Of a DNA stretch of 61,838 nucleotides, positions 1,674-57,602 are shown in pieces (the stretch's first letter is position 1; each line of letters begins with the position of its first letter). This DNA is from Candidatus Acidiferrales bacterium (GTDB lineage: Archaea > Halobacteriota > Bog-38 > Methanoflorentales > Methanoflorentaceae). Position numbers and translations under genes: made by a program. The notes below the pieces were generated by a model that worked only from the letters and a program-made list of their open reading frames with translations, was not told the origin of the DNA and made no database searches. The stretch is from NCBI GenBank assembly GCA_035624185.1, contig DASPRZ010000055.1, positions 1 to 61,838 of the forward strand, given 5' to 3'.

Positions 1674-1731
1674 TTTGATACTCTCTTCACTCTATGTTAC
1701 GTCGATTTTTTGGGGCTGTATTTTACTCTAT

Positions 1732-2829
1732 CTATTTTACCCGAACGTGTAGGTCATTCTGCTTTGCTGCCATCCTCAGGAGAATATCCTGAACTGTTCC
1801 GGCACCTGGTATTGCAACATTCTTCTCGTCTAGATCCTTCAACGATTTGATGGCATCGTTGTCTTTCATCACAAGAGCAGAACCATCGACATTGGCGCCG
1901 GCAATTATAGTAATGTCGACATTATCATTTATTCTCTTCAATGTTGCAGGTCCTAATCCAAATGATCCGACATCGATCTCGCCCGTCTTGAACCCATCCA
2001 TTAACGCTACGCCATTTGCATACTGTTTTGTCACTACGTTGAGTCCGACCTCTTTGTAGTACCCCTCTTTCTCGGCTGCATAATCAGCGATGTCGTGACT
2101 GTTAGCCGTAAGAGCTCCAAACTTAATTGTTGCGTTAGTACTCGCAGGCATCCAATTCGGATTCTTTGCAAGGTTGTCTTTTACTTCTTTCACATAGTCT
2201 TGAACGACAAAACTGTCAAAGAATTGATCCTCATTTGAGTATCCTATATCTGTCACTTTTTTATTCAAGTATGACGTATTTTTCAGCTCATTATAAAAGC
2301 CCTTTACTGCACTTGCATTCGTTTCATATATATAGCGGATATTTTTTAACGAAGCATTCGCGGCTGCGGTACTTACACCAGTACGCTCCGCAATGTATTG
2401 CACAGTTTTATCGTGGTTTTTCGGATCGTTTACAAAATCTGTCCCCTTGACGTGGGCCCACACCAGCCCAAGAGTAACATTTCTATCAAGCTTCTGAAGT
2501 GAGTTAGTTGAAGCAGCAAGTATGCAGCACGGATGTTCTGGCCATATATCTTTCGAGTACGCAACTACTTTCCCGGTTCCACTTAGTACCGCGCTGGAAC
2601 TGACAGGCTCCCATATCATGAAACCATCAATATTTCCTGTCTTCAGTTGTTCAGTCATATCGCCAACTTTGAGTGATGTTTCGTACACGGTTCCTTTATT
2701 TTGTCCGCTTTGTGTCATGCATCCCGCCGCAAATACTGTGCCTATTAATGATAGTACTACTAAAATGCCCCACGCCCGTTTCATATACATAGACGACCCT
2801 TGTATCCGTTTTAGTATGACAACAATCAT
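1732..2829 (-). CDS. ABC substrate-binding protein (NMT1/SsuA-like)
   Basis: Signal-like N-terminus KRAWGILVVLSLIGTVFAAGC followed by a soluble domain. Operon position supports the call. The true start is probably an internal Met (2790 or 2784). Confidence 0.8.
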   Translation of the reverse strand: MIVVILKRIQGSSMYMKRAWGILVVLSLIGTVFAAGCMTQSGQNKGTVYETSLKVGDMTEQLKTGNIDGFMIWEPVSSSAVLSGTGKVVAYSKDIWPEHPCCILAASTNSLQKLDRNVTLGLVWAHVKGTDFVNDPKNHDKTVQYIAERTGVSTAAANASLKNIRYIYETNASAVKGFYNELKNTSYLNKKVTDIGYSNEDQFFDSFVVQDYVKEVKDNLAKNPNWMPASTNATIKFGALTANSHDIADYAAEKEGYYKEVGLNVVTKQYANGVALMDGFKTGEIDVGSFGLGPATLKRINDNVDITIIAGANVDGSALVMKDNDAIKSLKDLDEKNVAIPGAGTVQDILLRMAAKQNDLHVRVK

Positions 2830-2830
2830 T

Positions 2831-2842
2831 TAACAATTGTTA
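2831..2842. promoter_or_regulatory. TAACAATTGTTA palindrome next to a TATA-like TTTATATA in the ABC operon promoter
   Basis: Perfect 12-bp palindrome with the same core as the sites at 54537, 54606 and 34367. Confidence 0.45.
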
Positions 2843-3003
2843 TATAAATTTTATTACAAATTTTATTGTACTGTAGAATTGTTTATCCTAAAGTGACTAT
2901 TATCTACCTGAATTTTGTCTATTTGTCATAATAAGCAAAAGTCACTAGCGAGAGGTCTCCTCCCGTTTTAGATCGGTAATATCTCGTAAAAGGTAGTTTG
3001 CGA

Positions 3004-20762: not shown

Positions 20763-21200
20763 TTTTGATAATTGTTAAATTAATTGTGCAGAAGTATTTA
20801 TTCTCGGTTCTTGACAAATTTTGCCATAGACTCTAGTGGATGTTGCATATTTTGGACCACGATGCTTTGTGCAGACGGTAGCGTTTGCCAGTTGGCACTC
20901 CGTGTGGAGCAAACAGCATGATCCCTTTGTCGTTGCGCCTACTTTCGGGACGCAAAAGAGCCCGTGGAAAATTTAATGAAAAGCGGTACCAAACGAAAGT
21001 GGATGTCGTGTTAGAAGCTCTTCAACAGCAAGTTTATGCATCGTTGCAGCTGTTGCAGCCTCATCGCCATCCCTCTCTGCCTGCACATGTGACGGCATCA
21101 GTCGTATTATGCTTAACATACGTTATGAACGCGCACATGATTGGTGTGATATTTCACGGATGCAGCGATGCGGGCGTGCCACCAGCACCTATTATCCTCT

Positions 21201-33639: not shown

Positions 33640-34330
33640 GATTTTAAAGACATTTTTGTGTAAGTCAAAGCCACTCTGTCTCACAGCTGCGACATCTCAT
33701 AAGTCTCTATGAGGTATCAGGTCACACCCGGTGCATGGCACACACATTGTCTGTGCTACGTCACATCTCAGACCGTACCGATCTAGTATCTCCGCGCTCT
33801 TTTTCAGCTAGTCATAGGAGTCGTTCTGCATCAGGCCGTTTAATGCCGACTTGAGCCCTCAACGGATGCTCAACAGCAGCTCTAAGGATGGGAATCACCC
33901 CAATTTTGGCAAGTTCGGCCATGCCATCTATCACGATCTTATCACTCTCTCCAAGACCTATGATGATGTTCGAAAACACTTTGTTTCTGCCGAATACCTG
34001 CACTGCATCTTTAAGCGCATCGATGATGAAATTCGAGGAGAGACTAGAGCACATCTTCTCAAAGAGGTCGCGGTCCATGGTCTCAACGTTGTACTTGATC
34101 TCGTCAGCATCGGCGTCTTTTAAAATCCTATTAAATCAGCAGTAGGGTACACGGACACGCCAATAGAGGGGTTGTATTTTTTTAACCTCTTGGCATTGAA
34201 CCTTAGGAAAAATGACGTCAACCCGCATCAGGGGCCGAGGCGGGTGTGGTGACTCGGCCGAGCAATTTTTCATCTATGTCTGCCCCGCCCACGGCAATTA
34301 AAAGAGCTTTAATCTCCGCATATTTGTGCA
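33640..34330 (-). pseudogene. multiply disrupted radical-SAM-like (BioB/HydE-type barrel, C-terminal half) gene remnant
   Basis: Pieces lie in three frames: ...SIGVSVYPTADLIGF / KDADADEIKYNVETMDRD...IIIGLGESDK... / LKKSAEILDRYGLRCD...CVPCTGC. No CxxxCxxC N-terminus in any frame. Confidence 0.45.
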
Positions 34331-34366
34331 TAGTTTGACCCCTAGCCAGCTTATTCTTTATATGTA

Positions 34367-34376
34367 TTAATTTCAA
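34367..34376. promoter_or_regulatory. AACAATTGTT palindrome upstream of the radical-SAM remnant
   Basis: Same core as the sites at 54537, 54606 and 2831. Confidence 0.35.
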
Positions 34377-35050
34377 CAATTGTTAATTTAAGCCCTCTCA
34401 ACTAGGCAACTTTTTCCGTGATGTTATACATATGAAGAGCTATGTTTGTTCCCAGCGAATTGAAGACGCTGTTGAAACTTATGTCATCACCAATGTTGGC
34501 AATACTTGGATAAAGGGATTGATGATCACAACTGGTTCAAACGGTTTGAATTCATACAAGAAAAGGAGAGTCCTAAGCGCCCGGTTTTGCTTGGAAATGG
34601 AACTGTGTCCTTTGACGAAAAATGGATCGAAGATGCCTACACGATGAGCGCCCCTATATCTCTTTGCTAACGTTTGCCATGAAAGAGAACATATTGGCGT
34701 ACCCGGTACATCTAGGGATGTTCTGTATTGCAGGTAAAATACAATCAAGCGCACTGCCTCGTACCTCTGATCGAGAAATTCTTTAGGACGGTTTCTATTT
34801 TTTGAGCTATTGTGCGAAAATAGAGGTCGTTGTAAAAATTCGTTTGGGCTCCGCCGGAGTACTCTCCGTATGATTTGTCACCATTGTCATTATACCAAAA
34901 TAATTATATCAAATATTCCTATAATATAATAATAATAGATAAATTATTCAGAAAAAGTCCTATAAAATCCTTAAAAGGAAACTATATCGAAACTTTTTGT
35001 ATAAGTAAAGTCAAGCTTTAGTGTAAGCTCAAAAATATTGGGGAATCATC

Positions 35051-40972: not shown

Positions 40973-41219
40973 TTTAAATCACATGCTTTAGGTGAGCTGC
41001 GCGCTTAGCATGAAAAGTTTTGTCTACTTACTCCCTTTTAAAGGTTAACCTTTATTATACAATTAGTTTTGGTTTACGGACATATTTTGTCCGTTTGTAA
41101 ATGTTAAATACACTTATATGCTTAATTATCATACGGATATTATAATATGGACCAATTTGATAATCGGCTCTAAGAAAGTCTCTTGATTTATGTATACTAA
41201 ACATAATTAAGGTGCAAAT

Positions 41220-42622: not shown

Positions 42623-43009
42623 ATGAAGACAAATGAAATGCAATCGAATATGAGACCCCGATGTGAAATTATTGTGCAGTACGTCCTTCCAGCAATAAGG
42701 GCTGAGATGGCTATACAGATGCAAAAACAGGGGATAAGTCAAATTAACATAGCGAAAGCACTTGGAGTAACTCCTGCAGCGGTAAATCAGTATTTGAGGA
42801 GTAAGAGGGGAGCGGCAGAACAGGACAATGAAATTTTAAAGATCATCGATGAGTTCATTGAGGAGTATAAAACTAATCCAGACGCGCTTGGCGAACACTT
42901 ATGTGAAGTCTGTAACAGAATCAAACTGTTATTAGATAGACCTAAGAATACGCCTACGAATACGGAATCAGAGCACGACTATCACTGCTACAACTTTTGC
43001 TGCTCCTGA
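42623..43009 (+). CDS. HTH transcriptional regulator with conserved Cys residues (paralog of 54180..54506)
   Basis: The shared pattern is CEI-x4-VLP-x-IRAE, then an HTH (ALGVTPAAVNQYL), then CxxC (CEVC). Confidence 0.7.
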   Translation: MKTNEMQSNMRPRCEIIVQYVLPAIRAEMAIQMQKQGISQINIAKALGVTPAAVNQYLRSKRGAAEQDNEILKIIDEFIEEYKTNPDALGEHLCEVCNRIKLLLDRPKNTPTNTESEHDYHCYNFCCS

Positions 43010-43048
43010 TTGGGGTGGATAATATAGTTGGTTGTAACGCTCTTGAAA

Positions 43049-43306
43049 TTAACCGGCTAGCCTATAGAGACTTTTCCGAGCATCTTTTATATAAAAGATT
43101 TTAAGTATAATTCCTTCAGCCTTTAGCCTGTTAATGGCATATCTAACTGTTCTGTAAGGCAAGTAAGTCTCTCTTTCGATCTCACTCAAGGTCATGGTAC
43201 CATTTCTTTCAAGAGTTTTAAACACAAGCTTTACGCTGGGGGGAAGCTCTCTTACTCTATCGAAAATGTTCAAATCATTATGGTCTATTTCGATAAGACT
43301 GCTCAC
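43049..43306 (-). CDS. small winged-helix DNA-binding protein
   Basis: 85 aa. The LSEIERETYLPYRTVRYAINRLKAEGI pattern resembles MarR/TrmB-type wHTH domains. Confidence 0.65.
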   Translation of the reverse strand: MSSLIEIDHNDLNIFDRVRELPPSVKLVFKTLERNGTMTLSEIERETYLPYRTVRYAINRLKAEGIILKIFYIKDARKSLYRLAG

Positions 43307-43322
43307 TTAAATCACCATGTTT

Positions 43323-43361
43323 ATTAACGCCGTTAACATATAAAAAATTAACGGCGTTAAT
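43323..43361. other. Perfect 14-bp-stem inverted repeat ATTAACGCCGTTAA / TTAACGGCGTTAAT
   Basis: Read directly from the sequence, with an 11-nt A-rich loop. Possibly a relic bidirectional terminator. Confidence 0.5.
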
Positions 43362-43380
43362 CAAACTACTTTAAAATCAT

Positions 43381-43560
43381 ATTTCTAAATCTCAAGCATC
43401 TTATTGAAAGACAGTCTTGTCTACACTTTTGTCTTCAGCGATCATAATTTTGCATCCACATTTTAAAGCGATTTAACGATCTTAAACGGTGGTAAGTTTC
43501 ATATGTGGACATACTGCTAATTCTAATTATGAATAACTCCTCATCTGGGTTTTCTTTTCG
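43381..43560 (-). pseudogene. nadA 3' remnant
   Basis: Nucleotide alignment with 53285..53470. The translation retains KENPDEE..F and CPHMKLTT but carries several stops. Confidence 0.7.
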
Positions 43561-43735
43561 CAGATTTTTCAAGGTCGATGAAACTCAGCAAAGGTAGATG
43601 ACGAGAGAGGAGGACTCTATTGCGCAAGTGAGAGCTGCGAGTCGACAGATGTGTGTGCGTTCCACTATGTTAATCCTGCATTTGTCTCGGTAGCGACAAG
43701 ACCAGAAATGATCCTAGGGAGATGGGTGGAGATCT

Positions 43736-44245
43736 TTGATAACAAGGTTTAATTTTTTTCTTAAACCGAAACCTCTCTTACAACGAACGTTTATTATGCA
43801 TGATATAGCAACATATGAAGCAGAAATTACTGAAGAAGTGGAAGAAGAGAAGATGCAGGATGTTGACGTTGAGCTTCACAACATGAGGCAATTGCTACAA
43901 GAGAGTAGCAACATTGCTGAGAGACTCGCGGCGCTATCGAAAGAGCGCAGGAGCTTGAACCCCCTTCCTGGCTCGCTGCGGAAACGTCGAATGCGTTGCG
44001 GGAAGCAGAGCTGCCGCTGTAAGGCGGGCTATTTGCACGGCCCTTACTACTATTTTGAGCCCTCTCGACAACACGGGAAGTGGCACTATGTCTCCAAAGT
44101 GCGGCTTGCAGAGGTGAAACGGGGCATCTCCGATTGGAAGAAACAGCAGGACATCGATAAGGCGATGCAAACGCTTGAAGAGCAGCTTGAAACAGTGCTT
44201 AAAGAGATACAGCGCGGGGTCGCCTCACTTATGCCTGATCGGTAA
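43736..44245 (+). CDS. hypothetical protein with CGKQSCRCKAGYLHGPYYYF motif (resembles the family I recall as DUF6788; unverified)
   Basis: ORF of 169 aa with a likely start at Met21 (43796). A decayed paralog lies at 48840..49223. Confidence 0.6.
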   Translation: MITRFNFFLKPKPLLQRTFIMHDIATYEAEITEEVEEEKMQDVDVELHNMRQLLQESSNIAERLAALSKERRSLNPLPGSLRKRRMRCGKQSCRCKAGYLHGPYYYFEPSRQHGKWHYVSKVRLAEVKRGISDWKKQQDIDKAMQTLEEQLETVLKEIQRGVASLMPDR

Positions 44246-44368
44246 AGGATCTGCGAGAGATATAAACGCAGTTGACATCGTGTGCCTCGCTGTTATAATT
44301 ATAGGGTAAAGCGGAGCAGAAGTAAGTAAAACAAGCAAATAATACAGTGGTGAGTTTTGCCAGAGGAA

Positions 44369-44935
44369 TTAATAAAGAGTGAAATAACTGTAACAGTTCG
44401 AGGGAACATACAGCTCACAATAACTCGAAAGAGGGCTTAAAGCGACATAACACCCCCACCAGACATGCGGGATGAGACGATATCTCACCCGATCCATATA
44501 GACGCTATGGCCTTTGAGCCTCTTCTGCAGCATACGTCCCTCCTGCATCGCCCGTCTCGCGAATACATCCTTGAGGAATAGCCTTAGGAGTACTCCGCTC
44601 CACGATCCTAGCAGAAAGGTAGATCCTACACAAAAGAGGATCACGCTCATATACAGGGGGGCGGACGTAGTGTTATGGTCCTGTCAATACCGTCGTATAT
44701 CCTCAATCTTCCTTAATGCCACTACTGACGACAGGTACTCATTCTCTCGATAAACGAGATATATGAGGTAAAATGAGGATAGGAGGATAATTACTCCTGC
44801 TAGGTGGAGCCATGTGGGCATCCATGAACAGCGAAATCTGAAGGCATCGAGTGGCATAGAAACCCACCAGGCACCAAAGGAGACGGCCAGCAGGCCTGTT
44901 ATAAATATTTTTGCACCAATAACGCTCGTATCCAC
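44369..44935 (-). pseudogene. disrupted isoprenylcysteine carboxyl methyltransferase (ICMT)-family membrane methyltransferase
   Basis: The C-terminal half carries LGSW...EGRML...YRLIPHVW. The expected TGPYxYVRHPLY block at ~44650..44690 has an in-frame TAA and a shift in a C-run. Confidence 0.65.
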
Positions 44936-45816
44936 GCATATACTGATGTGCAGTCTAGGGCGGATTTATGTATAGCTCATGTGTAAATTTTGGCGAAAAT
45001 AAAACTATGTGTGCTTCACAATTAGCTTCTTGACTCATTTTGCTGCTTTTTTTCTTGGAGCTTCAAGAGAGAACAAGCGATAACTATTACGACTTCCGTT
45101 CTAGTTTCTCTATGCGCTCTCCCATCGGGCCCTTACACGCTCTGAACTCTTCACAACATTTCTCCAACTTATTTATACGCTTCTTTAAATCGTTTATTTC
45201 GCTCTCATAATCCATTATTAAACCTCGTTACCTATGAAGCTGTTTGCTGGTTTTTAACGGCTGCCCTCTTTGTGTTCTCGTTCACACTTTCGACGAACTG
45301 ACTCTAGAATGATGGTAAATATGCTGTGAGGGCGACATCGAGCACCGTTTTACATTACCTCATCTAAATAACGCACCATTTGCTAATACTGATAAAAAGG
45401 GCTGCTTATTCAACCAATATCTCTTTAGATATATTTGCATATTTTGATACTGTCAAATATTGACCCTCTTTCCATAAAGTATGTCTTCGAAGGACGAATC
45501 TTGTCAAAATCGCAACCTTATTGAAAAATTCAATCTTTTTATTGATCTTAAAAAAATCGAACATCTGTCCTTTTGTTCACCACCAAAACCTTTTGTTTAC
45601 TAACAATAAATCGACAGATTTATAGCAGTTAAGCACGACTACGACGACAGATTTGCAGGAGTTTTTTCAGAAGAGCACGTCAGTCGAGGGCTCCCACTTG
45701 TGATTGATTAAGTTTTTAATGGAATGATGTGACGTGTTGAGTCATCACCAATTGCCTTTTCCCTACTCTGTAATTAGTCGAAAAATTTATATCTGAGAGT
45801 AGGATATGTCCGATTA

Positions 45817-46698
45817 TCATGTCTCATATTCACTTACCAGAACGAAGTTTTTGATTCTTGGAGTGATGAACCTGACAAACAAGTAAAAAAAGAAGACGAT
45901 GGTTGTTATAAAGAAGCTCACTGGGTACGGCTCAAAAAAACCAATAAAGAGCCCTAACCACGTTGCTATCAGAGCAATGACTGTAGAAATAATTATGACT
46001 CGCCCCGGTCGTTTTGCCAATAGCTGAGCCGTCGCAGCTGGCGTGACCATCAATGAGAAAATGAGGAGGACACCAACTACTTGAACCGCAAACGACGTTG
46101 CTACCGCGACTAGGAGCATGAAAATTATGCCGAGCAAAACCACGGGCAATCCTTTTGCTTCCGCCACATCTTCATCGAGCGATGCAAACAACAGAGGTCG
46201 ATAAACAAACGAAATGAAAACGATAACTATCACGCCGGCAATAAGTGTTAAAAGGACATTGCTGAAACTGACGCCTAATATTTCTCCAAATAAGATGGAG
46301 TACGCTTCAGTTGCATAGCCGGTGTAGAGGCTGAGGAACAACACACCTAGGCCAAGCATGAGTGCGAGGACTATTCCGATTTCGACGTCGCGATTAGCTG
46401 CACGTCGGCCAAGCATAGCTATCCCAAGTCCGCCCACGCTTGTGAAGAGGAGAAGACCGTAAACTGGGCTGACCCCGACTAATACGGCCGCCGCTGCCCC
46501 AGAGAAACCGATGTGGGAGAGCGCATGCGCTGCGAATGAAGAACGGCGCAACACTACGAAGTAGCCAACAATGCCCGCTATGATTGCGACTACTGTTCCT
46601 GCCTCGAAGGCGTGCTGCATGAACTGGTACTGAAACATCTGTTGCAGGTCGATCAATGGATTAATGCTGAAAGTCATTCTGTTCGACATCCGTGGCAA
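45817..46698 (-). CDS. metal (Zn/Mn/Fe) ABC transporter permease, ABC-3 family
   Basis: Polytopic membrane protein in an operon with a TroA/ZnuA-like binding protein and an ATPase. Confidence 0.85.
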   Translation of the reverse strand: MPRMSNRMTFSINPLIDLQQMFQYQFMQHAFEAGTVVAIIAGIVGYFVVLRRSSFAAHALSHIGFSGAAAAVLVGVSPVYGLLLFTSVGGLGIAMLGRRAANRDVEIGIVLALMLGLGVLFLSLYTGYATEAYSILFGEILGVSFSNVLLTLIAGVIVIVFISFVYRPLLFASLDEDVAEAKGLPVVLLGIIFMLLVAVATSFAVQVVGVLLIFSLMVTPAATAQLLAKRPGRVIIISTVIALIATWLGLFIGFFEPYPVSFFITTIVFFFYLFVRFITPRIKNFVLVSEYET

Positions 46699-47471
46699 TC
46701 TTCAATGCCTACAACTGCAATGTTACCCCTAGAGTCTTGAAGAACCTCAACTTGAACCCCGAACAAAGCCGAGAGACTTGCTGATGTCAGGACCTCTTTC
46801 GGCGTCCCGGTCGCCACCTTGCCGTTAGCGATGTAAATCACTTTATCGAGATACGGCAAAAGAGGGTTGATGTTATGGGCTATCAGAAGTACGGTCACGT
46901 TGCGCGATCGAACTACACTGTTTATAAGCTGAAGCAACTCTCTTTCGCGCCTCATGTCAAGATTCGATAAAGGTTCATCGAGCAAAAGGAGAGTAGGTTT
47001 GCTTACCAGCGCTTCTGCCAGAAATATCCTCTGCAGTTCTCCGCCCGACAATACGCCGAGAGACCGGTGGGCAAAGTCTGTAGCTCCAACGTCTTCCAGC
47101 ACGTCAAGAGCAGCTTTGCGGTCTTCGTGGGAAAACAGGCCCAGACCCCATTTTTTGCCGGAGAATCCCAGTCGCACAAGTTCAAGGGATTCAACATTTG
47201 CGTCACTGTCGAATATGTGACGCTGAGGTACGTAAGAAATCTGTGGATTGCCACGTTTGGGCGCTGCACCGAATATCTTGATCGTCCCGCTGACGGGTTG
47301 CTGCAAACCAAGTAGCAAACGAAACAGAGTCGTCTTGCCTGCTCCGTTAGGGCCGATAACCGCTACAAACTCGCCTCGATTGATTGAGAGACTGGCGTCT
47401 CGCCAAACTATTTTGCCTGGATATCCGGCCACTAGATTCTTGGACGTGATGATCTCGTACTGTGTACTCAT
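46674..47471 (-). CDS. metal ABC transporter ATP-binding protein (ZnuC/TroB-like)
   Basis: GPNGAGKTT, LSGGELQR, LLLDEP. Confidence 0.88.
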   Translation of the reverse strand: MSTQYEIITSKNLVAGYPGKIVWRDASLSINRGEFVAVIGPNGAGKTTLFRLLLGLQQPVSGTIKIFGAAPKRGNPQISYVPQRHIFDSDANVESLELVRLGFSGKKWGLGLFSHEDRKAALDVLEDVGATDFAHRSLGVLSGGELQRIFLAEALVSKPTLLLLDEPLSNLDMRRERELLQLINSVVRSRNVTVLLIAHNINPLLPYLDKVIYIANGKVATGTPKEVLTSASLSALFGVQVEVLQDSRGNIAVVGIEDCHGCRTE

Positions 47472-47474
47472 TCG

Positions 47475-48410
47475 TTATTTCAAAAGGGCTTCTTGGTTAA
47501 GTGCATTCTGAAGAATGATTAGCTGCGCATTCATCCAGTCTTGGAACGAGACATCTGGTGGTTGGATAGTCTCCGTCACTGGAACGATCGGAATGTTATG
47601 TTGAGAGGCCAATGTTTTGATGCTCTGAGTGAGCGGCGTCACCGTTTGCTCATTGTAGACCAGCACTTTAACAGTTCCGTTCGTAATAAGCTGATCGAAC
47701 TGCACGACGCTCTGCGCTGGGGGGTCATTTCCTTCGGCGACAGCTTCCATGAATGCAGGAGGAGACAAAAGGTCAAGACCAGTGGCGTTCGCCAGATACA
47801 CGAAGATGCTCTCTGTCGATGCTACTTTCGCGCCTCCAAACTGTTGCTTTATCGCAGCGATACGCTCGTTGTATGCCGCAAGCGATGCGTTCAACTTATC
47901 ATACTGCTGTGCATAGTATGAAGCTTGAGAGGGATCTATCGAAACAAGATCCTGATACATAGCCTTCACTGTTTCATTCACATAAGTAGGACTGTACCAG
48001 AAGTGAGGATTGGCACCTTCCGTCTGGTTTATGAGTTTCTGTACGTTTAAGACTTCTCGATTTGGACTACTGCTTGCATCTATAAGCTTTTGAGCCCAAG
48101 TGTCATATCCGGCTCCGTTAATAATTACGAGCTGGGCATCCGCTATTGATCTGGCGTCAGCGGTATTGCTTTCGTATTCGTGAGGGTCAACATTGGGGTC
48201 TGTAACGATACTCGTCACACTAACCCGTGTTCCGCCAAGCTGAGTTATCAGACTGCCCCAGAAATTTTCGGCGGCAACTACGTGTATCACTCCACTAGAA
48301 CTTGTGGAGCTGGAAGTTGTATGGTTTAAGAGATAAAAACCTGCGAAGGCTCCGGAGACAATTAACAGAACCAAAACGGTTGCAATAATTACATAATTAG
48401 TTCTCTTCAT
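47475..48410 (-). CDS. metal ABC transporter substrate-binding protein (TroA/ZnuA cluster-9 family)
   Basis: N-terminal anchor followed by a Ser/Thr linker. DPHEYE and NPHFWYSP motifs are typical of the family. Confidence 0.85.
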   Translation of the reverse strand: MKRTNYVIIATVLVLLIVSGAFAGFYLLNHTTSSSTSSSGVIHVVAAENFWGSLITQLGGTRVSVTSIVTDPNVDPHEYESNTADARSIADAQLVIINGAGYDTWAQKLIDASSSPNREVLNVQKLINQTEGANPHFWYSPTYVNETVKAMYQDLVSIDPSQASYYAQQYDKLNASLAAYNERIAAIKQQFGGAKVASTESIFVYLANATGLDLLSPPAFMEAVAEGNDPPAQSVVQFDQLITNGTVKVLVYNEQTVTPLTQSIKTLASQHNIPIVPVTETIQPPDVSFQDWMNAQLIILQNALNQEALLK

Positions 48411-48453
48411 TGTCTTACCTTCTTGTATGTGTATTGTAATCAGCTACGTCTCT

Positions 48454-48497
48454 GCCGGCTAAGGGCAGGCCGGCTAAGGGCAGGCCGGCTAAGGGCA
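48454..48497. repeat. Tandem repeat GCCGGCTAAGGGCAG x3 just upstream of the metal ABC operon
   Basis: Read directly from the sequence. It generates the low-complexity track ORF 48423..48668. Confidence 0.9.
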
Positions 48498-48839
48498 CGT
48501 TTAGCTGAAATATCGCAAACGACTGCTGCCACCATCGCCGCAGTCGCGAGCCGTTGCGTTGTTATGGTTTGGTGGTGCGTAATAATGAGGGTGATCGAAA
48601 TGAGCACGACTGCCAGCACCTACCAAGAGATTATCCACTGGATCGAAAAGACGCCATTTGACAAATGAATATGCGCCATCGACAATTCCCCACGTGATTT
48701 AGTGTAGTACAGTACACAACACCACCCTACATGTGCATGCATCCTACTCTACATATATAAATACATTTGGATCCATTAGGATAGGAATAAGAGCCTTACG
48801 CGAAATAGCCAGCGCGCCGCTTGTACGAGCAATTTGACT

Positions 48840-49223
48840 TCCTCCCGTAGCGCTTTCAGAGCTTTGTCAAGCCGTGCTGCACACGCTTGAAGGATTTCAT
48901 CGATTTCGCGCTGCTTTTTCCATCTGCGATGCCCTGCCGCACTTCACTGAGCCATTCGTTGGGTACGCAGCGCCACTTCCCATGCTGCCGCGAGAGCTTA
49001 AAATAGTAGTTGGGGCCGTGCAGCGGCTCTCCGTCGCAGCACTATAGACGCAGCATTGTTTGCGATATTTCAGGTGGAGCTTCCGTTTGCCGCTGGGGTG
49101 CATAAGAACTTCACTCAACTCATCGGCATTCTCACAGATCCATCTATTGGGTCGTTGATTGCGTTTATTGTCCATATCTTGAGTGTCTCCATCGGCAACG
49201 GATAGGGGATGATAGGGCCACAC
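48840..49223 (-). pseudogene. frameshifted paralog of ORF 43736..44245
   Basis: Pieces HGPNYYFKLSRQHGKW and DWKKQREIDEILQ.. (after a shift) parallel HGPYYYFEPSRQHGKW and DWKKQQDIDKAMQ. Confidence 0.55.
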
Positions 49224-49839
49224 ACCTTCGTCAACGCCAGCGAGGTAATCAGCGCATATTACCTCTTTACTTTTGCGACCCGCCGATTTGAGCTCTTCAC
49301 ATCAGGGCTGTATCTGTGTTTGGTGGATTGCTCGTCGGGAACGTACTATCAGCACGCACCATTCTAATTTCAGGAATACAAGGGAGCACACTGAGGGGAA
49401 CTGAACTATTCATGTACTTGCTCCAAACCCCTATATTGAGTCTATTCGTCGCCGAGTCGAAGCGATTGTGACGGGATCTATCGGTATAATGTTTGGGCAA
49501 GGTATGGAAAGACCTAATCGTTGAAGTGGCCGTGACTTAAATGAAGTGGCAATAAATCGTGCTTGCAGTACTTCTCATCGGAGCTGTTGCATTGCGTTCC
49601 CTCTGTGAATGGCCACTCGCATCAGCATGGAGGACATTGAGAACTGCCTGACTAATACCTCAGAGGGAAAGCAAGGGCACCTTCTATCCTGATCCATTAA
49701 ACATTAACCGAACCTCAACCGTCATTTACCACATCTGTCATAATTAACTGCACCTCGTGCTTGTAGAATATGGTATCACGCACAGACTATCTGCCTGAAC
49801 ATGATAACAAACTTCGCCATACTCTCGGTTGCCGATATT

Positions 49840-50938
49840 TTACTTCACCTTATACCTCTTCAATCGCAACGAATTGGCGACAACAGATACGGAACTAAGA
49901 GCCATAGCTCCTGCGGCAAATTCGGGACGGAGAAGTCCTAATGCCGCAACAGGGATTCCGACGGTGTTATAGATAAGCGCCCACCCGAAATTTTGCCGAA
50001 TTGTATTCATAGTCTTTTTCGAAAGCTTTATACTTGCCACTACGTCCCTTAAGTCACCCTTTACAAGTGTTATGTCGGACGCCTCTATTGCAATATCAGT
50101 ACCAGTCCCGATTGCTATCCCAATATCAGCTTGAGTTAACGCTGGGGCGTCGTTCATTCCATCGCCCACCATGGCCACTATGCGGCCTCCTTCTCGTAAT
50201 AGCCTCACTTCGGGATTTGTCTTGTGGAAGAACTTCCGAGAACACCTTGTCTATTTTCACTTGTCTCGCAGTGGCATTAGCTGTCATCTGGTTATCGCCC
50301 GTTATCATTGCTGTTTTGATCTCCATGTCTCGCAATTCCGTGATAACGCCCGACGCCTCCTCTCGTACTGTGTCAGCGAGCGCTATGGCCCCTTCCAATA
50401 CATTGTTGACCGCTAGCAGCATGACAGTTTTTCCTAGCTGATTCCGATATCCGATAATCTCCTGTTCTCTAAGTGTCCTCTCTCGGTCAACTCTCGCCGC
50501 TTTGGCTTCGACGGGCGGAACTTCCGACACGTCGTAACCAGTATTTTGAATGGTTTGTATAATGGTATTAATGGTCGCTATGGATGGATCATAGTCGATC
50601 ACCGCCTTGGCGGTGACTGGATTAATGCTTGCATCAATAACTCCAGGCACTTCTTTAAGGGTATTTTCGATTGCAGTAGTGCACGCAACGCATATAATGC
50701 CCGTGATATCAAACTCAGTTCTCTCTATATCGACATCGTACCCGGAGTCTCGTATTGCCTGCGCGAGTTGTTTGGACGCTATTTTATCCGGCTTATACGT
50801 TACCGTGGCCCACGCTAAAGCAAAGTTGACAGTCGCATGTGTCACTCCCTCTAGGTTCGAGAGTTGTTTCTCGATAGTGAGGGCGCACATCGTGCACGTC
50901 ATTCCAAGGATCTTAAACGTGACGGTAGTTTCTGTCAT
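49840..50938 (-). pseudogene. copA pseudogene (internal ~1.3-kb deletion plus frameshift)
   Basis: Both HMA domains run up to GYRNQL and then jump directly to [11 protein letters not shown], so the TM/actuator/phosphorylation region is missing. A frameshift lies near 50208. The flanks are also homologous to the copA locus. Confidence 0.85.
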
Positions 50939-51067
50939 TCGAAAGCCTAATAAAGCGTCTCTCCATAATAGATTGTAACGGATATCAATTTACAGGGGTC
51001 ATCATAAGTTTATTGCCGTAGTTATAATGGGAACGGTGGCACCTCTCGTTTATGGTAAGGGCTCTTG

Positions 51068-51253
51068 TTATATTTGCCAGAAGGCTGCTACTCTATCAGC
51101 ATTTACGTAGTCTCTACGGTTATCGTGCTCAAGAATTATCACGCCGTCTGCACTCCCAACTACTTTCCCTTTGAGGGTTTCATTTGGCCTCCCCCCAAAG
51201 TATACCTCTATCTCTTTGTCGTAGAAGTGCTCGGAAACAGTTTTATCCATCAT
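51068..51253 (-). CDS. 61-aa paralog of the copA-upstream small protein
   Basis: AGGAGGTGA RBS. About 85% identical to 10937..11122. Confidence 0.6.
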   Translation of the reverse strand: MMDKTVSEHFYDKEIEVYFGGRPNETLKGKVVGSADGVIILEHDNRRDYVNADRVAAFWQI

Positions 51254-51814
51254 AGTGTATCACCTCCTGGAAAAATTGCCATTAACTTTTTTTTGAATTG
51301 CATATTTGTTAATAGTTTCCTTGTGCAGTCGAAAAACTGCCAATTGAGGAACATGTGAGTGTAGACACCATACGGTATATATATTAAACTTAAGCCGTCA
51401 CTCAGATAAACTCGTACATTGAAGGAGCGCGTTATGATCTAAAGATGGCAAGGGAAAGGCCGAACTGCATTGCTAGTTTTTACCTAGGTGCACGTAGATA
51501 CGCGCTGGAATCCTTGGCATCAATACAAGTCAACCTGCTGTTCAAGAACGGCGATCTGCTGGAACTGTATGCCGAAAATAAACAAGCTGAAATGGCCGCG
51601 GATGCTTCGTTGACATTTTTTCAACTGTTTAATAAATAAGAACGTGCTTTCGTGTTATCAGTGTAATATTATTATTCGCAGGAGCTCACCGATTTCTGCG
51701 TCTTCATGTTCACATGCCCTACCATGACAAATCATTTAATACCGTATATTTACTTGATTCTCTTCCTCCATTTATTCTTCAAATGGTAAATTGTTTAGGA
51801 TGATGTACTCTCTC

Positions 51815-52072
51815 TCACCACGTCACTTGAATCGCTTCTTCGAGCGGCATAGCAGGTGCGATATGAGCCACGCCCAAGGATCTGAATGGTCCCGTAATCT
51901 TGAGCAGTGTTTCTTCATCAGGCGCGTCGAAGATTGCGACAGACATATGTCTGCCGATAAGAACGTAACGTCCTATCACGTTCACATTTTCGGGATACCT
52001 GAAGTGCTTCCACAATTCGACCACCCGATTGGCATGATCGGGATCAAATTTGTACCATAAAACGAACAACAT
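51815..52072 (-). CDS. DUF3303-like small protein (paralog of 36271..36528)
   Basis: 85 aa, about 85% identical. Confidence 0.6.
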   Translation of the reverse strand: MLFVLWYKFDPDHANRVVELWKHFRYPENVNVIGRYVLIGRHMSVAIFDAPDEETLLKITGPFRSLGVAHIAPAMPLEEAIQVTW

Positions 52073-52422
52073 TCTTCCTCACTTTCCAATAATTGATTAA
52101 TTTAGGGACGCTCGAACAGAGCTTGCCTGTTCTTGACTTCAAGAAAAGAAAATCTTATGTTAAGGTGCCATTTGTCATGGCACTTTCTCTTCTTGAGGTA
52201 GAACATTAAAGAAAATGACCAGTTTGGCAATAACACTTTCACCCTTTTTTCTGGTTCCAGCTTTATCAGTGTGCGGCTGCCTCTATTGTGAGTAGTTACT
52301 GCCGCAATAGAAATGAAAAACAAATAAACAATATTTTAGTGCTTTTACTCTAAAACGGAAAGATGCTCATATTACTATTAACCTGATTTGATACTTTCAA
52401 TTTCTCAAAACTACTTAAAGTA

Positions 52423-52890
52423 ATGCACAATATTGCTTCTAACAAAGAATTTAATATTATAAATAACATAATATATAAAATAAAAAACAATTTGTCACGG
52501 AATAAACTGATTAACCTCGAATTGATGGGAAAAGCGTTTCGAGTGCAAATTTTGCAAATTGTTATGACAACTCCTAAAATTCTTATACTCGATGCCAATG
52601 ATCGTACGATCTACACTATCGCGATGCAACAACTGAGACGTATCGATCGCGAAATATGCAGACAGAAACAAAGTTTTCGAAATAAGCATAAAACGCATGT
52701 AAAGTCGATGCTGCATTTTATTCTGCCAGACATTCATGAAGTTGAGATTCGGGCCAAAGAGATCAAAGACAAAAATCTAAGACTCGAGCTTCGAGAAGAA
52801 ATAGTCGAGCGGAAGAGGAAATACTACGAACTGTATGATGAAGTACAGGATACGATTTTTTTGAACCGAGGTTTTTGTGGTCATCACTAA
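52423..52890 (+). CDS. hypothetical protein (AT-rich region)
   Basis: ORF only, with no recognised motif. Confidence 0.3.
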   Translation: MHNIASNKEFNIINNIIYKIKNNLSRNKLINLELMGKAFRVQILQIVMTTPKILILDANDRTIYTIAMQQLRRIDREICRQKQSFRNKHKTHVKSMLHFILPDIHEVEIRAKEIKDKNLRLELREEIVERKRKYYELYDEVQDTIFLNRGFCGHH

Positions 52891-53094
52891 CGCAGAGAAA
52901 ACCTCCATTTAAGGTCAGGACGTTTCGAGGATCATGTTCAAGTCGTGCGGAGTTAATTCCCTCAAGCTAAACGAAACTACCCCCCAACCCTGTCACGCGG
53001 ACAGTAAACCGCAACCCCCTATATGCCCGAAACTTGCTTTTTGCAGCGAGGCTAGAGAGTGCTTTCACGTGATTGTGTTTGTTCTTGAGATTAA

Positions 53095-53205
53095 GGCTTG
53101 GTGCCATCTCTTTCACGAGTTTTATCCACGAGCTCTACACTCAGGGCAAGCTCTCTTACTCTCCCAAAAATGTTCAAATAACTTTAATTTGTTTCGATAA
53201 GACTA
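53095..53205 (-). pseudogene. remnant of the small wHTH gene (N-terminal ~37 codons)
   Basis: SSLIETN*SYLNIFGRVRELALSVELV parallels MSSLIEIDHNDLNIFDRVRELPPSVKLV of 43049..43306. Confidence 0.55.
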
Positions 53206-53232
53206 CTCGGTTGCGTAACGATAATTATTGAC

Positions 53233-53272
53233 GGAGTTAGTGTGTCACTTAAGGAGTTAGTGTGTCACTTAA
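53233..53272. repeat. Tandem repeat GGAGTTAGTGTGTCACTTAA x2 just downstream of nadA
   Basis: Two exact 20-bp copies. Confidence 0.9.
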
Positions 53273-53284
53273 GTTATCATATCT

Positions 53285-54190
53285 CTAAATCTCAAGCATC
53301 TTATCAAGAGCCTTTTTTGCCTGCACTCTCACGTCTTCAGCGACGGTTATTTTATACTCCATATTATTAAGTGCATCAACAACTTTCTGAAGGGTCGTAA
53401 GTTTCATGTTTGGACATACTGCATGCTCTGAGGGAGAATAAAACTCTTTGTCTGGGTTTTCTTTTTGTAGTCTGTAAAGTAGCCCAACTTCTGTTCCTAT
53501 GAGCATCCTCTTTGCATTACTAATTTTCGCGTGTCGTAGCATCCCTCCAGTGCCATACACGTAATCAGCAACTTCAATGACCTCTGGCCGGCACTCAGGG
53601 TGCACCACTACTTCAATATCAGGAATCTCGTGCTTTTTCATAAGGATATCACCGAGGGTAATGTTCTCATGCGTAGGGCAGAAGCCGTTCCAAGCTATAA
53701 TCTCCTTATCAGTCTTGGACTGCACGAAGTATGCGAGGTTTATGTCTGGCACAAATATGACTTGGTCGCTATCAACCGAGTTTATCACGTTTATTACGTT
53801 TGCTGACGTGCAACAAATATCGCTTTTAGCCTTGACGTCAGCCGGCGTATTTACGTAGCACACCACTGTTGCTTGGGGATGTTCCCGCCTTAATGCCTGA
53901 ACATCCGCGGCAGTTATCATGTGAGACATTGGGCACGTAGCGTTCTTCACTGGTAGGAGCACGGTCTTCTCAGGAGACAAAATATACGCACTCTCTGCCA
54001 TAAAGTCGACCCCGCAAAATACGACGATGTCACAATCTATCTGAGAGGCAATTCGAGAGAGCTCAAATGAGTCTCCAACATAATCGGCCGCTTCTTGTAT
54101 TTCTCCTATTTGGTAATTATGGGCAAGAATTATAGCGTTTTGATCATTTTTTAATTCTTTTAAACGGTTGCCCATGTTTTCACTTGTCAA
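53285..54190 (-). CDS. nadA: quinolinate synthase NadA
   Basis: ILAHNYQ, ATCPMSHM, VVHPECRPEV, AVCPNMKLTT. Confidence 0.92.
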   Translation of the reverse strand: MTSENMGNRLKELKNDQNAIILAHNYQIGEIQEAADYVGDSFELSRIASQIDCDIVVFCGVDFMAESAYILSPEKTVLLPVKNATCPMSHMITAADVQALRREHPQATVVCYVNTPADVKAKSDICCTSANVINVINSVDSDQVIFVPDINLAYFVQSKTDKEIIAWNGFCPTHENITLGDILMKKHEIPDIEVVVHPECRPEVIEVADYVYGTGGMLRHAKISNAKRMLIGTEVGLLYRLQKENPDKEFYSPSEHAVCPNMKLTTLQKVVDALNNMEYKITVAEDVRVQAKKALDKMLEI

Positions 54191-54506
54191 GTGGTTTGCA
54201 GACGCCCCCTTCTCCCTTTATGATGCGGCAAATTTCACAGATTTTTTCACTAATGTCAACATCCTTGTTCTCAATAATATCTCGAGATAAAGTTTTGATT
54301 GAACCTTGGACTTCATCGCTTATAGGGATAGCGCTCCCGCGTTTGCTATTCACATAATAGCTCACTGCCGATTGCGTTATTCCCAGGCATCCTGAGACCT
54401 CCTTTTGAGGGAGACCTAGTTTCACGAGTTCTTTTGCGATTTCAGCGCGGATTTTTGGAAGAACATACCAGACAGCTATCTCACAAGGCGACTTTTGTTC
54501 TTTCAT
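54180..54506 (-). CDS. HTH transcriptional regulator with conserved Cys residues (paralog of 42623..43009)
   Basis: PCEIAVWYVLPKIRAE, HTH CLGITQSAVSYYV, CEIC. Overlaps the nadA start by 11 nt. Confidence 0.7.
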   Translation of the reverse strand: MKEQKSPCEIAVWYVLPKIRAEIAKELVKLGLPQKEVSGCLGITQSAVSYYVNSKRGSAIPISDEVQGSIKTLSRDIIENKDVDISEKICEICRIIKGEGGVCKPLDK

Positions 54507-54536
54507 TGTCTATAAAAGTAAGTATGGCTAGAGTTA

Positions 54537-54552
54537 TATAACAATTGTTATA
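54537..54552. promoter_or_regulatory. Perfect 16-bp palindrome TATAACAATTGTTATA (site 1)
   Basis: Lies in the divergent regulator-nadA / metY intergenic region. Confidence 0.6.
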
Positions 54553-54605
54553 ATAATAGGAGCAGTTTCTGTCACTTCCCAAAGATTTAAGAGCGACATT
54601 TTAAG

Positions 54606-54621
54606 TATAACAATTGTTATA
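54606..54621. promoter_or_regulatory. Perfect 16-bp palindrome TATAACAATTGTTATA (site 2)
   Basis: Identical to site 1. Ends 30 nt upstream of the metY ATG. Confidence 0.6.
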
Positions 54622-54651
54622 TTTGAATTGTAAATTGATACAGGTGAAATC

Positions 54652-55920
54652 ATGCCAGGACAAGGAACGAAAGCTCTACATGGGGGACAAATACCAGACC
54701 CCTCAACAAAGGCACGAGCGGTACCGATTTACCAAACGACGTCGTTTGTATTTGACAGCACGGAACACGCTGCGAATCTATTTGCCTTGAAAGAACTCGG
54801 CAATATTTACTCGAGGATCATGAACCCGACGTGTGACGTTCTCGAGCAGAGAATAGCGCAGCTTGAAGGGGGCAAGGCAAGTCTTGCGGTTGCAAGTGGC
54901 CAATCAGCTACCACATTGTCACTTCTGAACATTGCGAGGCCAGGGGATGAGATTGTATCTTCGTCGCTGCTTTATGGTGGGACGTACACGCTATTTTCCT
55001 CAACTCTTGCAAAAATGGGCATTAAAATACATCTGATAGATTCACGGAATCCTGAGAATTTCAACAGCTACGTCAACAACAAGACGAAAGCATTTTTCGG
55101 CGAGACCATTGGCAATCCGAGCTTAGATGTACTAGACATTGAAACGGTGGCTAGCATAGCGCATGATAACGGGGTGCCGCTTATCGTTGACAACACTGCC
55201 GCGTCTCCTATTTTAAGCAGACCGATAGAGCTTGGGGCGGACATAGTTGTGCACAGTCTCACTAAATTCCTCGGTGGGCACGGAACATCCATTGGCGGTA
55301 TCATCGTAGATGGTGGAAATTTTGATTGGACCAACGGAAAATTCCCTGATTTTACCGAACCTGATCCGACGTATAACGGCATTAAATATTCAGAAGCGTT
55401 TGGGGACCTAGCATTTATCGTGAAGGCACGAGTTCATCTGCTTCGAGATATTGGCCCAGCACTAAGTCCATTTAACGCTTTTCTCACCCTCCAAGGAGTT
55501 GAAACACTCCACTTGCGGATGGAAAAACACTCTTCCAACGCACTCGAAGTAGCAAAGTTCCTTCAAGGGCACGATAAAGTTTCGTGGGTGAGCTATCCAG
55601 GGCTTGAAGGGCATCCCTCTTATGAGCTATCCAAGAAATATTTGTCAAAAGGGGCAAGTGCCTTGGTAGGATTCGGGGTGAAAGGTGGATACGAGGCAGC
55701 AGTAAAAGTTATTGAAAGTGTAAAGCTCTTCAGCCATCTCGTTAACATTGGAGATTCGAAATCTTTAATTGTACATCCAGCGAGTACTACCCACCAACAG
55801 CTGAGTGGTGAGGAGAAAATAAGCGCAGGGGTAACTGATGATTTCATACGGTTATCAATCGGAATAGAAGATGTTGAGGATATCCTAGAGGACTTGAACC
55901 AAGCGTTATCATGCGTGTAA
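54652..55920 (+). CDS. metY: O-acetylhomoserine (thiol)-lyase / sulfhydrylase
   Basis: PLP fold type [12 protein letters not shown] Lys context and C-terminal IRLSIGIED. Confidence 0.9.
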
Positions 55921-57002
55921 TAGAACATGTTGTGAGCACCGAATATTACACATTCGAAGAACTTGAGTTAGACTGTAAGCGAACGCTTTCACCGGTAACA
56001 ATTGCCTACGAGACGTACGGGGACCTCAATTCCGCAAAGGACAATGCCATCCTTGTGCAGCACGCCCTTTCAGGAGACGCCCACGCGACATTTACAAATG
56101 AACGGGGAGAGAAAGGGTGGTGGTATGACTTCATAGGCCCGGGTAAAGCAATCAATACTGAAGAATATTTTGTAATTTGCTCTAACTTCATAGGTGGCTG
56201 TGGCGGGTCAACTGGTCCGAGTAGCCTTGATCCTGAAACAGGAAGGCCTTACGGGCTTCGTTTTCCTGTCATTACTACTGGCGACATGGTTAGAGCTCAA
56301 AAATGCCTCATAGACCATCTCGGTATCGAGCGGCTCCTGAACGTTATTGGCGGCTCAATTGGGGGGATGCAAGCTCTACAATGGGTGGTCGACTATCCTG
56401 AAAATGTAACTTCAGCAATAATTATTGCTTCAACTAACAGGCTTTCAGCTCAGAGTATTGCGTTTAATGTGGTTGGACGTCAGGCAATTATGTCTGATCC
56501 TTATTGGTTGGGTGGAGATTATTACGATGTCGCAGTTCCCAGTAATGGTCTCTCATTGGCGCGAATGATAGGACATATTACTTACTTAAGCGAGGAGAAA
56601 ATGCACGAAAAGTTTGGCCGCGAGCTGAAAGGAGCGCCTATCTATAAGTATGGCTTTTCAGAAGAATTTCAAGTCGAGAGTTATCTCCATTATAAAGGCA
56701 ACCACTTTGTAGGACGTTTTGACGCGAACTCGTACCTTTACATAACAAAAGCGATGGATTACTTCGATATTTCTGATTTTTCATCTGTACAGTCAAAAAT
56801 GCTTGTCATATCATTTTCATCTGACTGGTTATTCCCGCCTGCGCAATCAAAAGCAATTGTAAGGGCACTACGGAGGAAAGGAGTCGATGTATCTTATTGC
56901 GAAGTGCAATCATTACATGGCCACGATGCGTTTTTACTCGAAGTGCCCCCGCTGACGGAATTAATCTCTAGCTTTTTGAACAACGTTTTCAATGGAAGTT
57001 GA
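55911..57002 (+). CDS. metX: homoserine O-acetyltransferase
   Basis: HALSGDAH, nucleophile elbow [14 protein letters not shown]. Confidence 0.9.
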
Positions 57003-57005
57003 GAT

Positions 57006-57602
57006 ATGCAGAGATTTGATCACGAGATTATCATAAGTGTCATAGAAAATGGATCCCGAGTACTCGATTTGGGCTGTGGAAATGGAGAATTCCTGAGTAA
57101 GCTAAAACAGAGACGCAACATCGATGCAAGGGGGGTAGAGCTTGATGATCGTTGCGTAACTGAATGCATACACAAAGGTCTCACGGTATTCCAAGGTGAC
57201 ATTGACGAAGGGCTTGGGGGTTATGATGATAAGTCCTTCGATTACGTGGTACTAAACCAGACTATTCAAGTCGTACATAAACCAACACTTGTCATAGAAG
57301 AGATGCTCCGCGTTGGAAAAAGGGCAATTGTGAGCTTTCCCAACTTTGGGTATTTCCGCATACGGTGGTATCTACTCACAAAGGGGCGGATGCCAAAGGT
57401 TGATTTTTTGCCCTGCGACTGGTATAACACACCCAACATTCATCTGCTTACCATTAATGACTTTATAACATTTTGTGGCGTGATGAACGTAACGATAGAG
57501 CGATTTATCGGTTTAAAAAGCAATTCCACAGGCAAAACATCGAGGCATTTTCAAAATCTATTATCTCAAATAGGTATATTTGTGATTAAATCCCATGAAT
57601 GA
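57006..57602 (+). CDS. metW: methionine biosynthesis protein MetW
   Basis: VLDLGCGNGEFL, RGVELD. Located directly after metX. Confidence 0.85.
   Translation: MQRFDHEIIISVIENGSRVLDLGCGNGEFLSKLKQRRNIDARGVELDDRCVTECIHKGLTVFQGDIDEGLGGYDDKSFDYVVLNQTIQVVHKPTLVIEEMLRVGKRAIVSFPNFGYFRIRWYLLTKGRMPKVDFLPCDWYNTPNIHLLTINDFITFCGVMNVTIERFIGLKSNSTGKTSRHFQNLLSQIGIFVIKSHE

Follow-up and report, generated by a model that had tools for sequence, protein, structure and literature searches.

Twin palindromes between metYXW and a small cysteine-bearing regulator gene are candidate operators of a proposed sulfur assimilation repressor in archaea

The window analyzed here is the 61,838-nucleotide (nt) contig DASPRZ010000055.1 of assembly GCA_035624185.1, and our subject is a 145-bp divergent gap (54507-54651) between the gene for a 108-amino-acid (aa) helix-turn-helix (HTH) regulator and metY. 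The gap is bounded by the regulator ATG (54506, minus strand) and the metY ATG (54652). It holds two identical, perfect 16-bp palindromes, TATAACAATTGTTATA, 69 bp apart from center to center: putative operator O1 at 54537-54552, 30 nt 5' of the regulator ATG, and putative operator O2 at 54606-54621, 30 nt 5' of the metY ATG. Judging from comparative sequence analysis, these palindromes are very probably the binding sites of the adjacent 108-aa protein. We put at roughly 70% the probability that they are its high-affinity operators and that it acts through them by repression and negative autoregulation.

An earlier note, made from the window alone, had pointed to the twin palindromes and to a 10-bp core that seemed far more frequent than chance allows. 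Sequence search confirmed the palindromes, their spacing, and the gap. The core, AACAATTGTT, occurs four times in the window (2832-2841, 34375-34384, 54540-54549, and 54609-54618) compared to 0.12 times expected; the copy at 34375-34384 had been put at 34367-34376, 8 bp off its true place. Five matches to TATAACAATTGTTATA with up to three mismatches were found in the window, compared to 0.49 expected, and five or more were found in none of 100 shuffles. When the entire assembly was scanned (131 contigs, 2.16 Mb, 43% G+C), O1 and O2 were the only perfect copies of TATAACAATTGTTATA, and the sole one-mismatch copy was at 2829-2844, here called O3.

The palindromes are also conserved at this locus. 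metWXY and regulator-nadA are divergent neighbors in every genome of the window's archaeal family where the locus was recovered, and the recovered gaps carry one or two palindrome copies. When 11 gaps from both genera of the family were aligned, the metY-proximal palindrome (O2) proved invariant, with diverging flanks. O1 is kept in genus g1; in the other genus, the palindrome copies are 14 to 25 bp apart, not 69. The 14-mer ATAACAATTGTTAT was present at the metY-regulator locus in 10 of 10 family genomes scanned, with few other near-matches elsewhere in these genomes, and exact copies were found at the locus in further family genomes as well.

We then ranked sites with a position matrix trained on distant lineages only (loci L042 to L101, none of them from the window's archaeal family). 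Genome-wide, ranks 1 to 3 were O1 (25.9, the maximum possible score), O2 (25.9), and O3 (23.9), all of which lie in promoters, and the fourth-best score in the assembly (20.5) came from a match inside a coding region. Since a matrix built from distant lineages places the window sites at the top, the motif is not a common promoter feature. The earlier note had allowed that it might prove to be an AT-rich promoter feature found across the genome; the scan returned three strong sites only, and the motif is invariant at this locus across the family.

The pairing of motif and protein was examined in 448 kb of sequence around 80 orthologs of the regulator from other species. TAAC-N4-GTTA occurs 150 times in this set, compared to 6.4 times in dinucleotide shuffles (maximum, 10). 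Controls in the same sequence gave 7 occurrences for the reversed pattern, 2 for N5 spacing, and 3 for N6 spacing. By a crude open reading frame (ORF) call, 134 of the 150 sites are intergenic, and the consensus is (A/T)A-TATAAC-AATT-GTTATA-T(A). Tandem pairs occur with a modal offset of 14 bp (20 cases). An exact site lies within 160 nt upstream of the regulator gene in 37 of 79 loci; in Methanocella-like, Methanosarcinales, and Altiarchaeota loci, it is found 4 to 30 nt 5' of the regulator start codon, just past the TATA box. The complete genome of Methanobacterium sp. MBAC-LM has 13 perfect copies of TATAAC-N4-GTTATA, 8 of them in the 22 kb around the regulator gene. Taken together, these data bear out the proposed link: the operator is specific and travels with orthologs of the 108-aa regulator across several archaeal orders. 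Methanocella-type regulator promoters (L037, L038, L040, L042, and L053) have in addition a second palindrome with N3 spacing, TTAACGNCGTTAA, just 5' of the TATA box and about 45 to 60 nt 5' of the regulator start; TAAC-N3-GTTA occurs 31 times in the 80 loci.

The earlier note had assigned methionine and sulfur uptake genes to this operator, and the genes preceded by sites agree with it, covering methionine, cysteine, and sulfur uptake functions. Directly 3' of sites in other genomes we found a cysteine-synthase-type (cysK-like) PALP enzyme, often with tandem sites, as well as metY, cysS (cysteinyl-tRNA synthetase), a NifU-like (Nfu) protein, YcaO, and a dinitrogenase-cofactor-family protein. 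Another such target is a stand-alone ThrRS editing-domain protein (tRNA-Thr_ED), which also neighbors SepCysS in the window. In MBAC-LM, sites neighbor cysK-like and metY genes, a gene for an HcyBio protein into which a ferredoxin domain is inserted, and genes for PdxS, for an NMT1-like binding protein, and for proteins related to ThiS, EamA, and nitrogenase. By the domain criterion of PMC12068725, HcyBio with the ferredoxin insertion is of the MMP16/coenzyme M (CoM)-synthase type. As read from these gene neighborhoods, the shared theme of the predicted targets is sulfur incorporation and trafficking, in agreement with metYXW and the SsuA-like transporter of the window.

On the protein side, AlphaFold models the regulator with confidence (pLDDT, 84) as a five-helix protein whose HTH spans residues 34 to 53 (helices 34 to 41 and 45 to 53). 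Among 92 diverse members of the family, E9, P17, and R20 are near invariant in the first helix, as are Q34, L41, T44, A47, S49, Y51, K55, and R56 in or after the HTH. T44, A47, S49, K55, and R56 are at least 90% conserved and Y51 is invariant, and these residues lie in or just after the second HTH helix. Such conservation of the second HTH helix matches the invariant half-site of the palindrome, which supports the pairing of this protein with this DNA sequence.

A paralog of the regulator (128 aa; 42623-43009, plus strand) lies 3' of SepCysSn-SepCysS, and the earlier note had it share the operator. It is doubtful that the paralog reads the palindrome, either by itself or interchangeably with the 108-aa protein. 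The resemblance that had been described holds: the two are 41% identical and have in common C-E-I, LP-x-IRAE, the HTH, and CxxC, and in relatives their genes are only about 2 kb apart in one sulfur gene neighborhood. However, the distant loci carrying a site at their own promoter encode proteins closer to the 108-aa protein (47 to 56% identity) than to the paralog (32 to 43%), and G031, with a single family member, still has a site upstream of its regulator gene. Furthermore, two nearly invariant positions of the recognition helix are changed in the paralog (Q45 to P and S49 to N), and the SepCysS promoter is devoid of strong sites (best matrix score, 4.8). The sites thus track orthologs of the 108-aa protein, and use of the operator by the paralog is not supported.

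The direction of control was read from promoter geometry. In the window, the only suitably placed TATA-like elements are TTTTAAGTATAA before metY and TATTATTATAA before the regulator gene, both partly formed by the palindromes. The O3 promoter on the minus strand reads TTTATATAACAATTGTTAAATG, in which a TATA box of canonical archaeal type runs into the 5' half of the site. At Methanocella-type promoters, the site fills the stretch from the TATA box to the start codon. Sites that overlap or closely follow putative TATA boxes point to probable repression and autoregulation, and the repressor role first proposed for the protein fits these positions.

The same protein on the same sites could instead be an activator or dual regulator that recruits TATA-binding protein (TBP) and transcription factor B (TFB) to a weak TATA box when sulfur is limiting. 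The elements before metY and the regulator gene are indeed poor matches to TTTATATA, and archaeal regulators of the TrmBL1 type act both ways depending on site position. We consider activation improbable, as the transporter and Methanocella-type promoters have a good TATA box 5' of or overlapping a site that spans the stretch to the expected start site, which is the classical repressor position. Least likely of all is a reading of the palindromes as part of the basal promoter (TATA-like elements back to back) or as targets of some unrelated factor, with the HTH gene as a bystander, since, although their outer bases are TATA-like and the sites are always in promoters, the basal machinery requires neither the conserved inner AAC-N4-GTT (center mostly AATT) nor the strict N4 spacing, the motif is rare genome-wide, the MBAC-LM copies cluster around the regulator gene, and the palindrome as an RNA hairpin is weak (−2.2 kcal/mol).

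From the sequence features established here, their conservation, and their association with the protein, we infer binding, the direction of control, and the signal as follows. The centers of the half-sites TATAAC and GTTATA are 10 bp apart, or one helical turn, as expected for a symmetric HTH dimer that would contact each TATAAC half-site with one recognition helix. At each of the two divergent promoters, one operator would overlap the TATA-like element, possibly assisted by a weaker partner site 14 bp nearer the gene, and the bound protein would keep out TBP/TFB or RNA polymerase. Repression would thus fall on metYXW to one side and on the protein's own regulator-nadA operon to the other, the latter being negative autoregulation, and O3 would similarly repress the SsuA/TauA-like ATP-binding cassette (ABC) importer. 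Because 69 bp corresponds to about 6.6 helical turns, looping between O1 and O2 is not expected. DNA binding would most probably be switched by C8, C90, C93, and C102, with sulfide, cysteine, or iron-sulfur (Fe-S) sufficiency as the likely signal, acting via an Fe-S cluster, a bound metal, or thiol/persulfide chemistry. Under replete conditions the protein would bind and repress, and under limitation it would release the DNA.

Several observations weigh against this model or narrow it. Across this genome, the loose motif TAAC-N4-GTTA was observed 48 times, compared to about 35 expected (26 to 42 in shuffles), and its counts in 41 relatives are about those of the reversed-pattern control. As the loose motif is barely above chance genome-wide, its presence or absence carries little information, the regulon is very small within this archaeal family, and a large regulon in this genome was rejected. 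Autoregulation is not universal, since in Methanobacterium many orthologs have no site in front of their own gene. The TATA box overlap rests on a reading of the sequence. The possible partner sites are tentative: O1' (TATGGCTAGAGTTATA; 11 of 16 positions; 54523-54538) is 14 bp from O1 toward the regulator gene, and O2' (TATTTGAATTGTAAAT; 10 of 16; 54620-54635) is 14 bp from O2 toward metY, and both were spotted by eye and are not picked up by the position matrix. The cysteines, finally, could be purely structural (zinc), with a partner protein such as NadA as the true effector. For O2', the CA-TT core is kept at the same position across the archaeal family in the gap alignment.

The gap has one more conserved feature, a nonpalindromic block on the minus strand, T-AA---TTT-GGA---G-C-A-AA (54563-54589; invariant alignment columns 66 to 92), common to both genera and located between the two operators, on the regulator gene side of O2. 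Rfam gave no match for it, nor does it contain a conserved ORF. A known RNA element was rejected for this region, as an Rfam scan of 54300-54850 gave chance-level matches only (E ≥ 0.95, far under gathering scores). A 21-codon minus-strand ORF across O1 was likewise ruled out because its ATG is missing in G003.

The regulator itself belongs to a large family that is widespread in methanogens and almost without annotation. The 108-aa protein has no Pfam or NCBIfam model of its own, and the family has no solved structure. Against PF01381 (HTH_3), the regulator scores 18.1 bits, under the 23-bit cutoff, and the paralog scores 23.7 bits, just over it; in precomputed annotations, some homologs carry this match and others do not. 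Members go by the public names "transcriptional regulator" or "predicted transcriptional regulator" and no others. In an exhaustive profile search, 2,678 cluster representatives passed E ≤ 1e-3 and 1,240 passed E ≤ 1e-10, and a six-frame search detected the protein family in 196 of the 251 phylum genomes sampled and in 79 of 96 genera. A scan of species-representative genomes yielded loci from Methanocella, Methanobacterium, Methanosarcinales, Methanotrichaceae, Methanophagales, and Altiarchaeota, the closest loci being in peat or fen metagenome-assembled genomes labeled just Halobacteriota or Methanomicrobia archaeon. By sequence, the top PDB entry is lambda repressor-like (E = 1.3e-7 over 52 residues), and by structure Foldseek gave weak matches to XRE, Cro, and Aca proteins (E ≥ 0.29; TM score, 0.27 to 0.41). 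Neither the PDB profile search nor Foldseek found a structural homolog beyond generic HTH proteins.

The arrangement of cysteines points to what the protein may sense. C8 lies in the N-terminal helix, and C90-x2-C93-x8-C102 follows past the HTH. C8, C90, and C93 are invariant in the close set of sequences, and C102 is kept in short forms. C8 and C90 are both present in 56 of the 92 diverse members, both absent in 35, and split in one, a covariation that suggests a link between the N-terminal helix and the C-terminal CxxC, either as a shared ligand set or as a disulfide. C93 is present in 83% of sequences, and a second cysteine module, C102-x2-H...CxxC, is present in 71 to 88%. The window protein and those of its archaeal family are short forms that keep C8, C90, C93, and C102 and do not have the His or the terminal CxxC. 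After the HTH, there are about 50 residues in two helices, which leaves little room for a metabolite pocket.

Genetic linkage and gene fusions add to this picture. The regulator-nadA link that the earlier note had drawn is real: the genes are adjacent throughout the archaeal family, and in three species of the sister genus (L034, L035, and L036) the regulator and NadA are fused in frame into one 405-aa reading frame (regulator from 3001). At the unfused junction in the window (54173-54190) and in the other relatives checked, the regulator stop and the nadA start are a few nt apart. nadA linkage is confined to the window's archaeal family and a few Methanocellales-like loci. NadA is a [4Fe-4S] enzyme. 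In addition, the C8/C90 pair is missing from a 506-aa family member, P0121, which carries a fused cysteine desulfurase of the NifS/IscS type (TIGR03402; 527 bits). The conserved, covarying cysteines together with the NadA and NifS-type fusions suggest Fe-S, thiol, or sulfur sensing. We favor a role of the cysteines in sensing sulfide, cysteine, or Fe-S sufficiency, and for the Fe-S version of this we would give a chance of roughly one in three.

The regulator gene (54180-54506, minus strand) is tightly coupled to nadA, which encodes quinolinate synthase (53285-54190, minus strand; Pfam NadA PF02445, E = 8e-117) and whose likely ATG, at 54175, is 4 nt past the regulator stop codon. On the other side of the gap, the metY-metX-metW operon (54652-57602, plus strand) consists of metY, for O-acetylhomoserine sulfhydrylase (54652-55920; TIGR01326, 673 bits), metX, for homoserine O-acetyltransferase (55911-57002; NF001209, 497 bits), and metW (57006-57602; PF07021). 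In relatives L021, L023, and L024, with the gene order metWXY, regulator-nadA, paralog-SepCysS, about 2 kb separates the two paralogs, compared to about 11 kb in the window (42623-54506), which implies that DNA was inserted or rearranged here. Common to both genera is a further block, CATATTTTGTCCNTTTNTNAANGTTNAATA (41077-41112), 5' of SepCysSn-SepCysS-paralog; in the window's genus, it is part of the inverted repeat ACGGACA-N5-TGTCCGT. This block may be a promoter or the operator of another factor, possibly of the paralog.

The third strong site, putative operator O3 (TTTAACAATTGTTATA; one mismatch; 2829-2844), overlaps on the minus strand a TTTATATA box (2851-2844) of an SsuA/TauA-like ABC transporter operon (145-2784, minus strand). 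A likely lipoprotein start (MKRAWGILVV...AAGC) is about 45 nt beyond the site. The operon encodes a lipoprotein substrate-binding protein (1732-2784), which matches SsuA-family, SaoX, and taurine-binding models, all under cutoff, as well as a TauC-like permease (894-1673) and a TauB-like ATPase (145-903), whose NCBIfam matches are under the curated cutoffs. SepRS is directly upstream of the operon. O3 is kept upstream of the orthologous binding-protein gene in G001. A degenerate element, ATAAACAATTCTAC (2871-2886, minus strand), is located 42 bp 5' of O3 and is also kept in the orthologous promoter of G001.

Two other elements had been listed with the operators, and both are weak. The core upstream of a degraded LipS2/BioB-like radical S-adenosylmethionine (SAM) gene (minus strand) is present, within the site TTCAACAATTGTTAAT (34372-34387), yet this site is weak (matrix score, 11.9) and semiconserved, being TAACCATTGTTA in G002 and degenerate in G003, and it precedes a pseudogene. 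The gene is intact in G002 and G003 (329 to 330 aa) and broken into short ORFs in the window (33812-34332, minus strand), hence its assignment as a pseudogene. The string before cooS, ATAATTGTTAAATTAATTGT, was correct in sequence and coordinates (20768-20787) but is a half-site scoring 6.0 of 25.9, and the cooS upstream region has no alignable counterpart in four congeners; we do not regard it as a target. Elsewhere in the assembly, the two-mismatch matches at C55:885, C80:1355, C89:32433, C93:3750, and C131:12348 are in coding regions and were rejected as sites. TATAACAATAGTTCTA (G000 contig C63:13852-13867; score, 17.3) is intergenic, 68 nt 5' of a NifB-like radical SAM gene (310 aa); it is a possible fourth target, consistent with the nitrogenase-like and NifX-like targets in Methanobacterium.

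The closest functional parallel is SurR of Pyrococcus furiosus, a sulfur response regulator with a CxxC redox switch that controls sulfur-related genes and itself via a short promoter palindrome containing AAC/GTT. The 108-aa protein, too, would be an archaeal DNA-binding protein with sulfur gene and self targets, and its cysteines are proposed to switch binding. However, SurR is ArsR-like, with two winged helices and about 230 aa, whereas the protein here is a 108-aa XRE-like HTH protein; the SurR motif is GTT-N3-AAC rather than TAAC-N4-GTTA; and SurR targets hydrogenase and elemental sulfur (S0) reduction rather than sulfur assimilation. No window protein matched the ArsR-type models HTH_5 or HTH_20, and the CxxC here is C terminal (C90 and C93), not N terminal as in the ArsR/SurR class.

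Among other regulators, the bacterial Rrf2-family proteins CymR and IscR are similarly small and dimeric and repress genes for cysteine, methionine, or Fe-S functions. IscR has three cysteines plus one further cluster ligand, and CymR acts together with an enzyme, CysK, a partnership reminiscent of the NadA and NifS fusions here. In contrast, CymR and IscR have a winged helix instead of an XRE-like HTH with two C-terminal helices, their cysteine spacing is different, and the present family is archaeal; neither paralog has a Pfam or NCBIfam match to Rrf2. By sequence, the regulator belongs only loosely to XRE: with XRE/Cro-C1 proteins, it shares the HTH core and a predicted palindromic operator with half-sites one helical turn apart, but its long N-terminal helix (PCE-x4-W-x2-LP-x-IR-x-E) and cysteine-bearing C-terminal module are absent from XRE. 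The bacterial regulators NadR, NiaR, and NrtR are also factors joined genetically or physically to nicotinamide adenine dinucleotide (NAD) synthesis functions, but they have no sequence relation to the regulator, and the operator here precedes sulfur genes in most lineages.

To our knowledge, the transcriptional control of sulfur assimilation in methanogens, including cysteine supply by SepRS/SepCysS or CysK, homocysteine supply by MetY or COG1900, and CoM and Fe-S supply, is largely unknown. Full-text searching of one literature library found no named regulator and no description of the operator, the protein family, or a methanogen sulfur regulon, and PMC12068725 names no regulator. What we describe is a predicted operator-repressor pair whose sensor architecture would be new, as would its widely conserved regulon. 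As a tentative extension, the family may serve methanogens and their relatives as a general regulator of sulfur assimilation at the level of transcription, acting on cysteine, methionine, CoM, Fe-S, and sulfur carrier genes. Such a protein would read sulfide/Fe-S status directly via a Cys3(+1) site that bridges the N-terminal helix and the C-terminal CxxC, in some lineages with NadA or a NifS-type desulfurase as a cosensor. The candidate put forward here consists of a 16-bp operator with a consensus, a small protein, and a predicted regulon in Methanobacterium and Methanocella. If true, the known Fe-S and thiol switch regulators would gain a sensor of a new type, in which an XRE-like HTH is combined with a split cysteine site, and better annotation would follow for about 2,700 sequence clusters now labeled only "transcriptional regulator."

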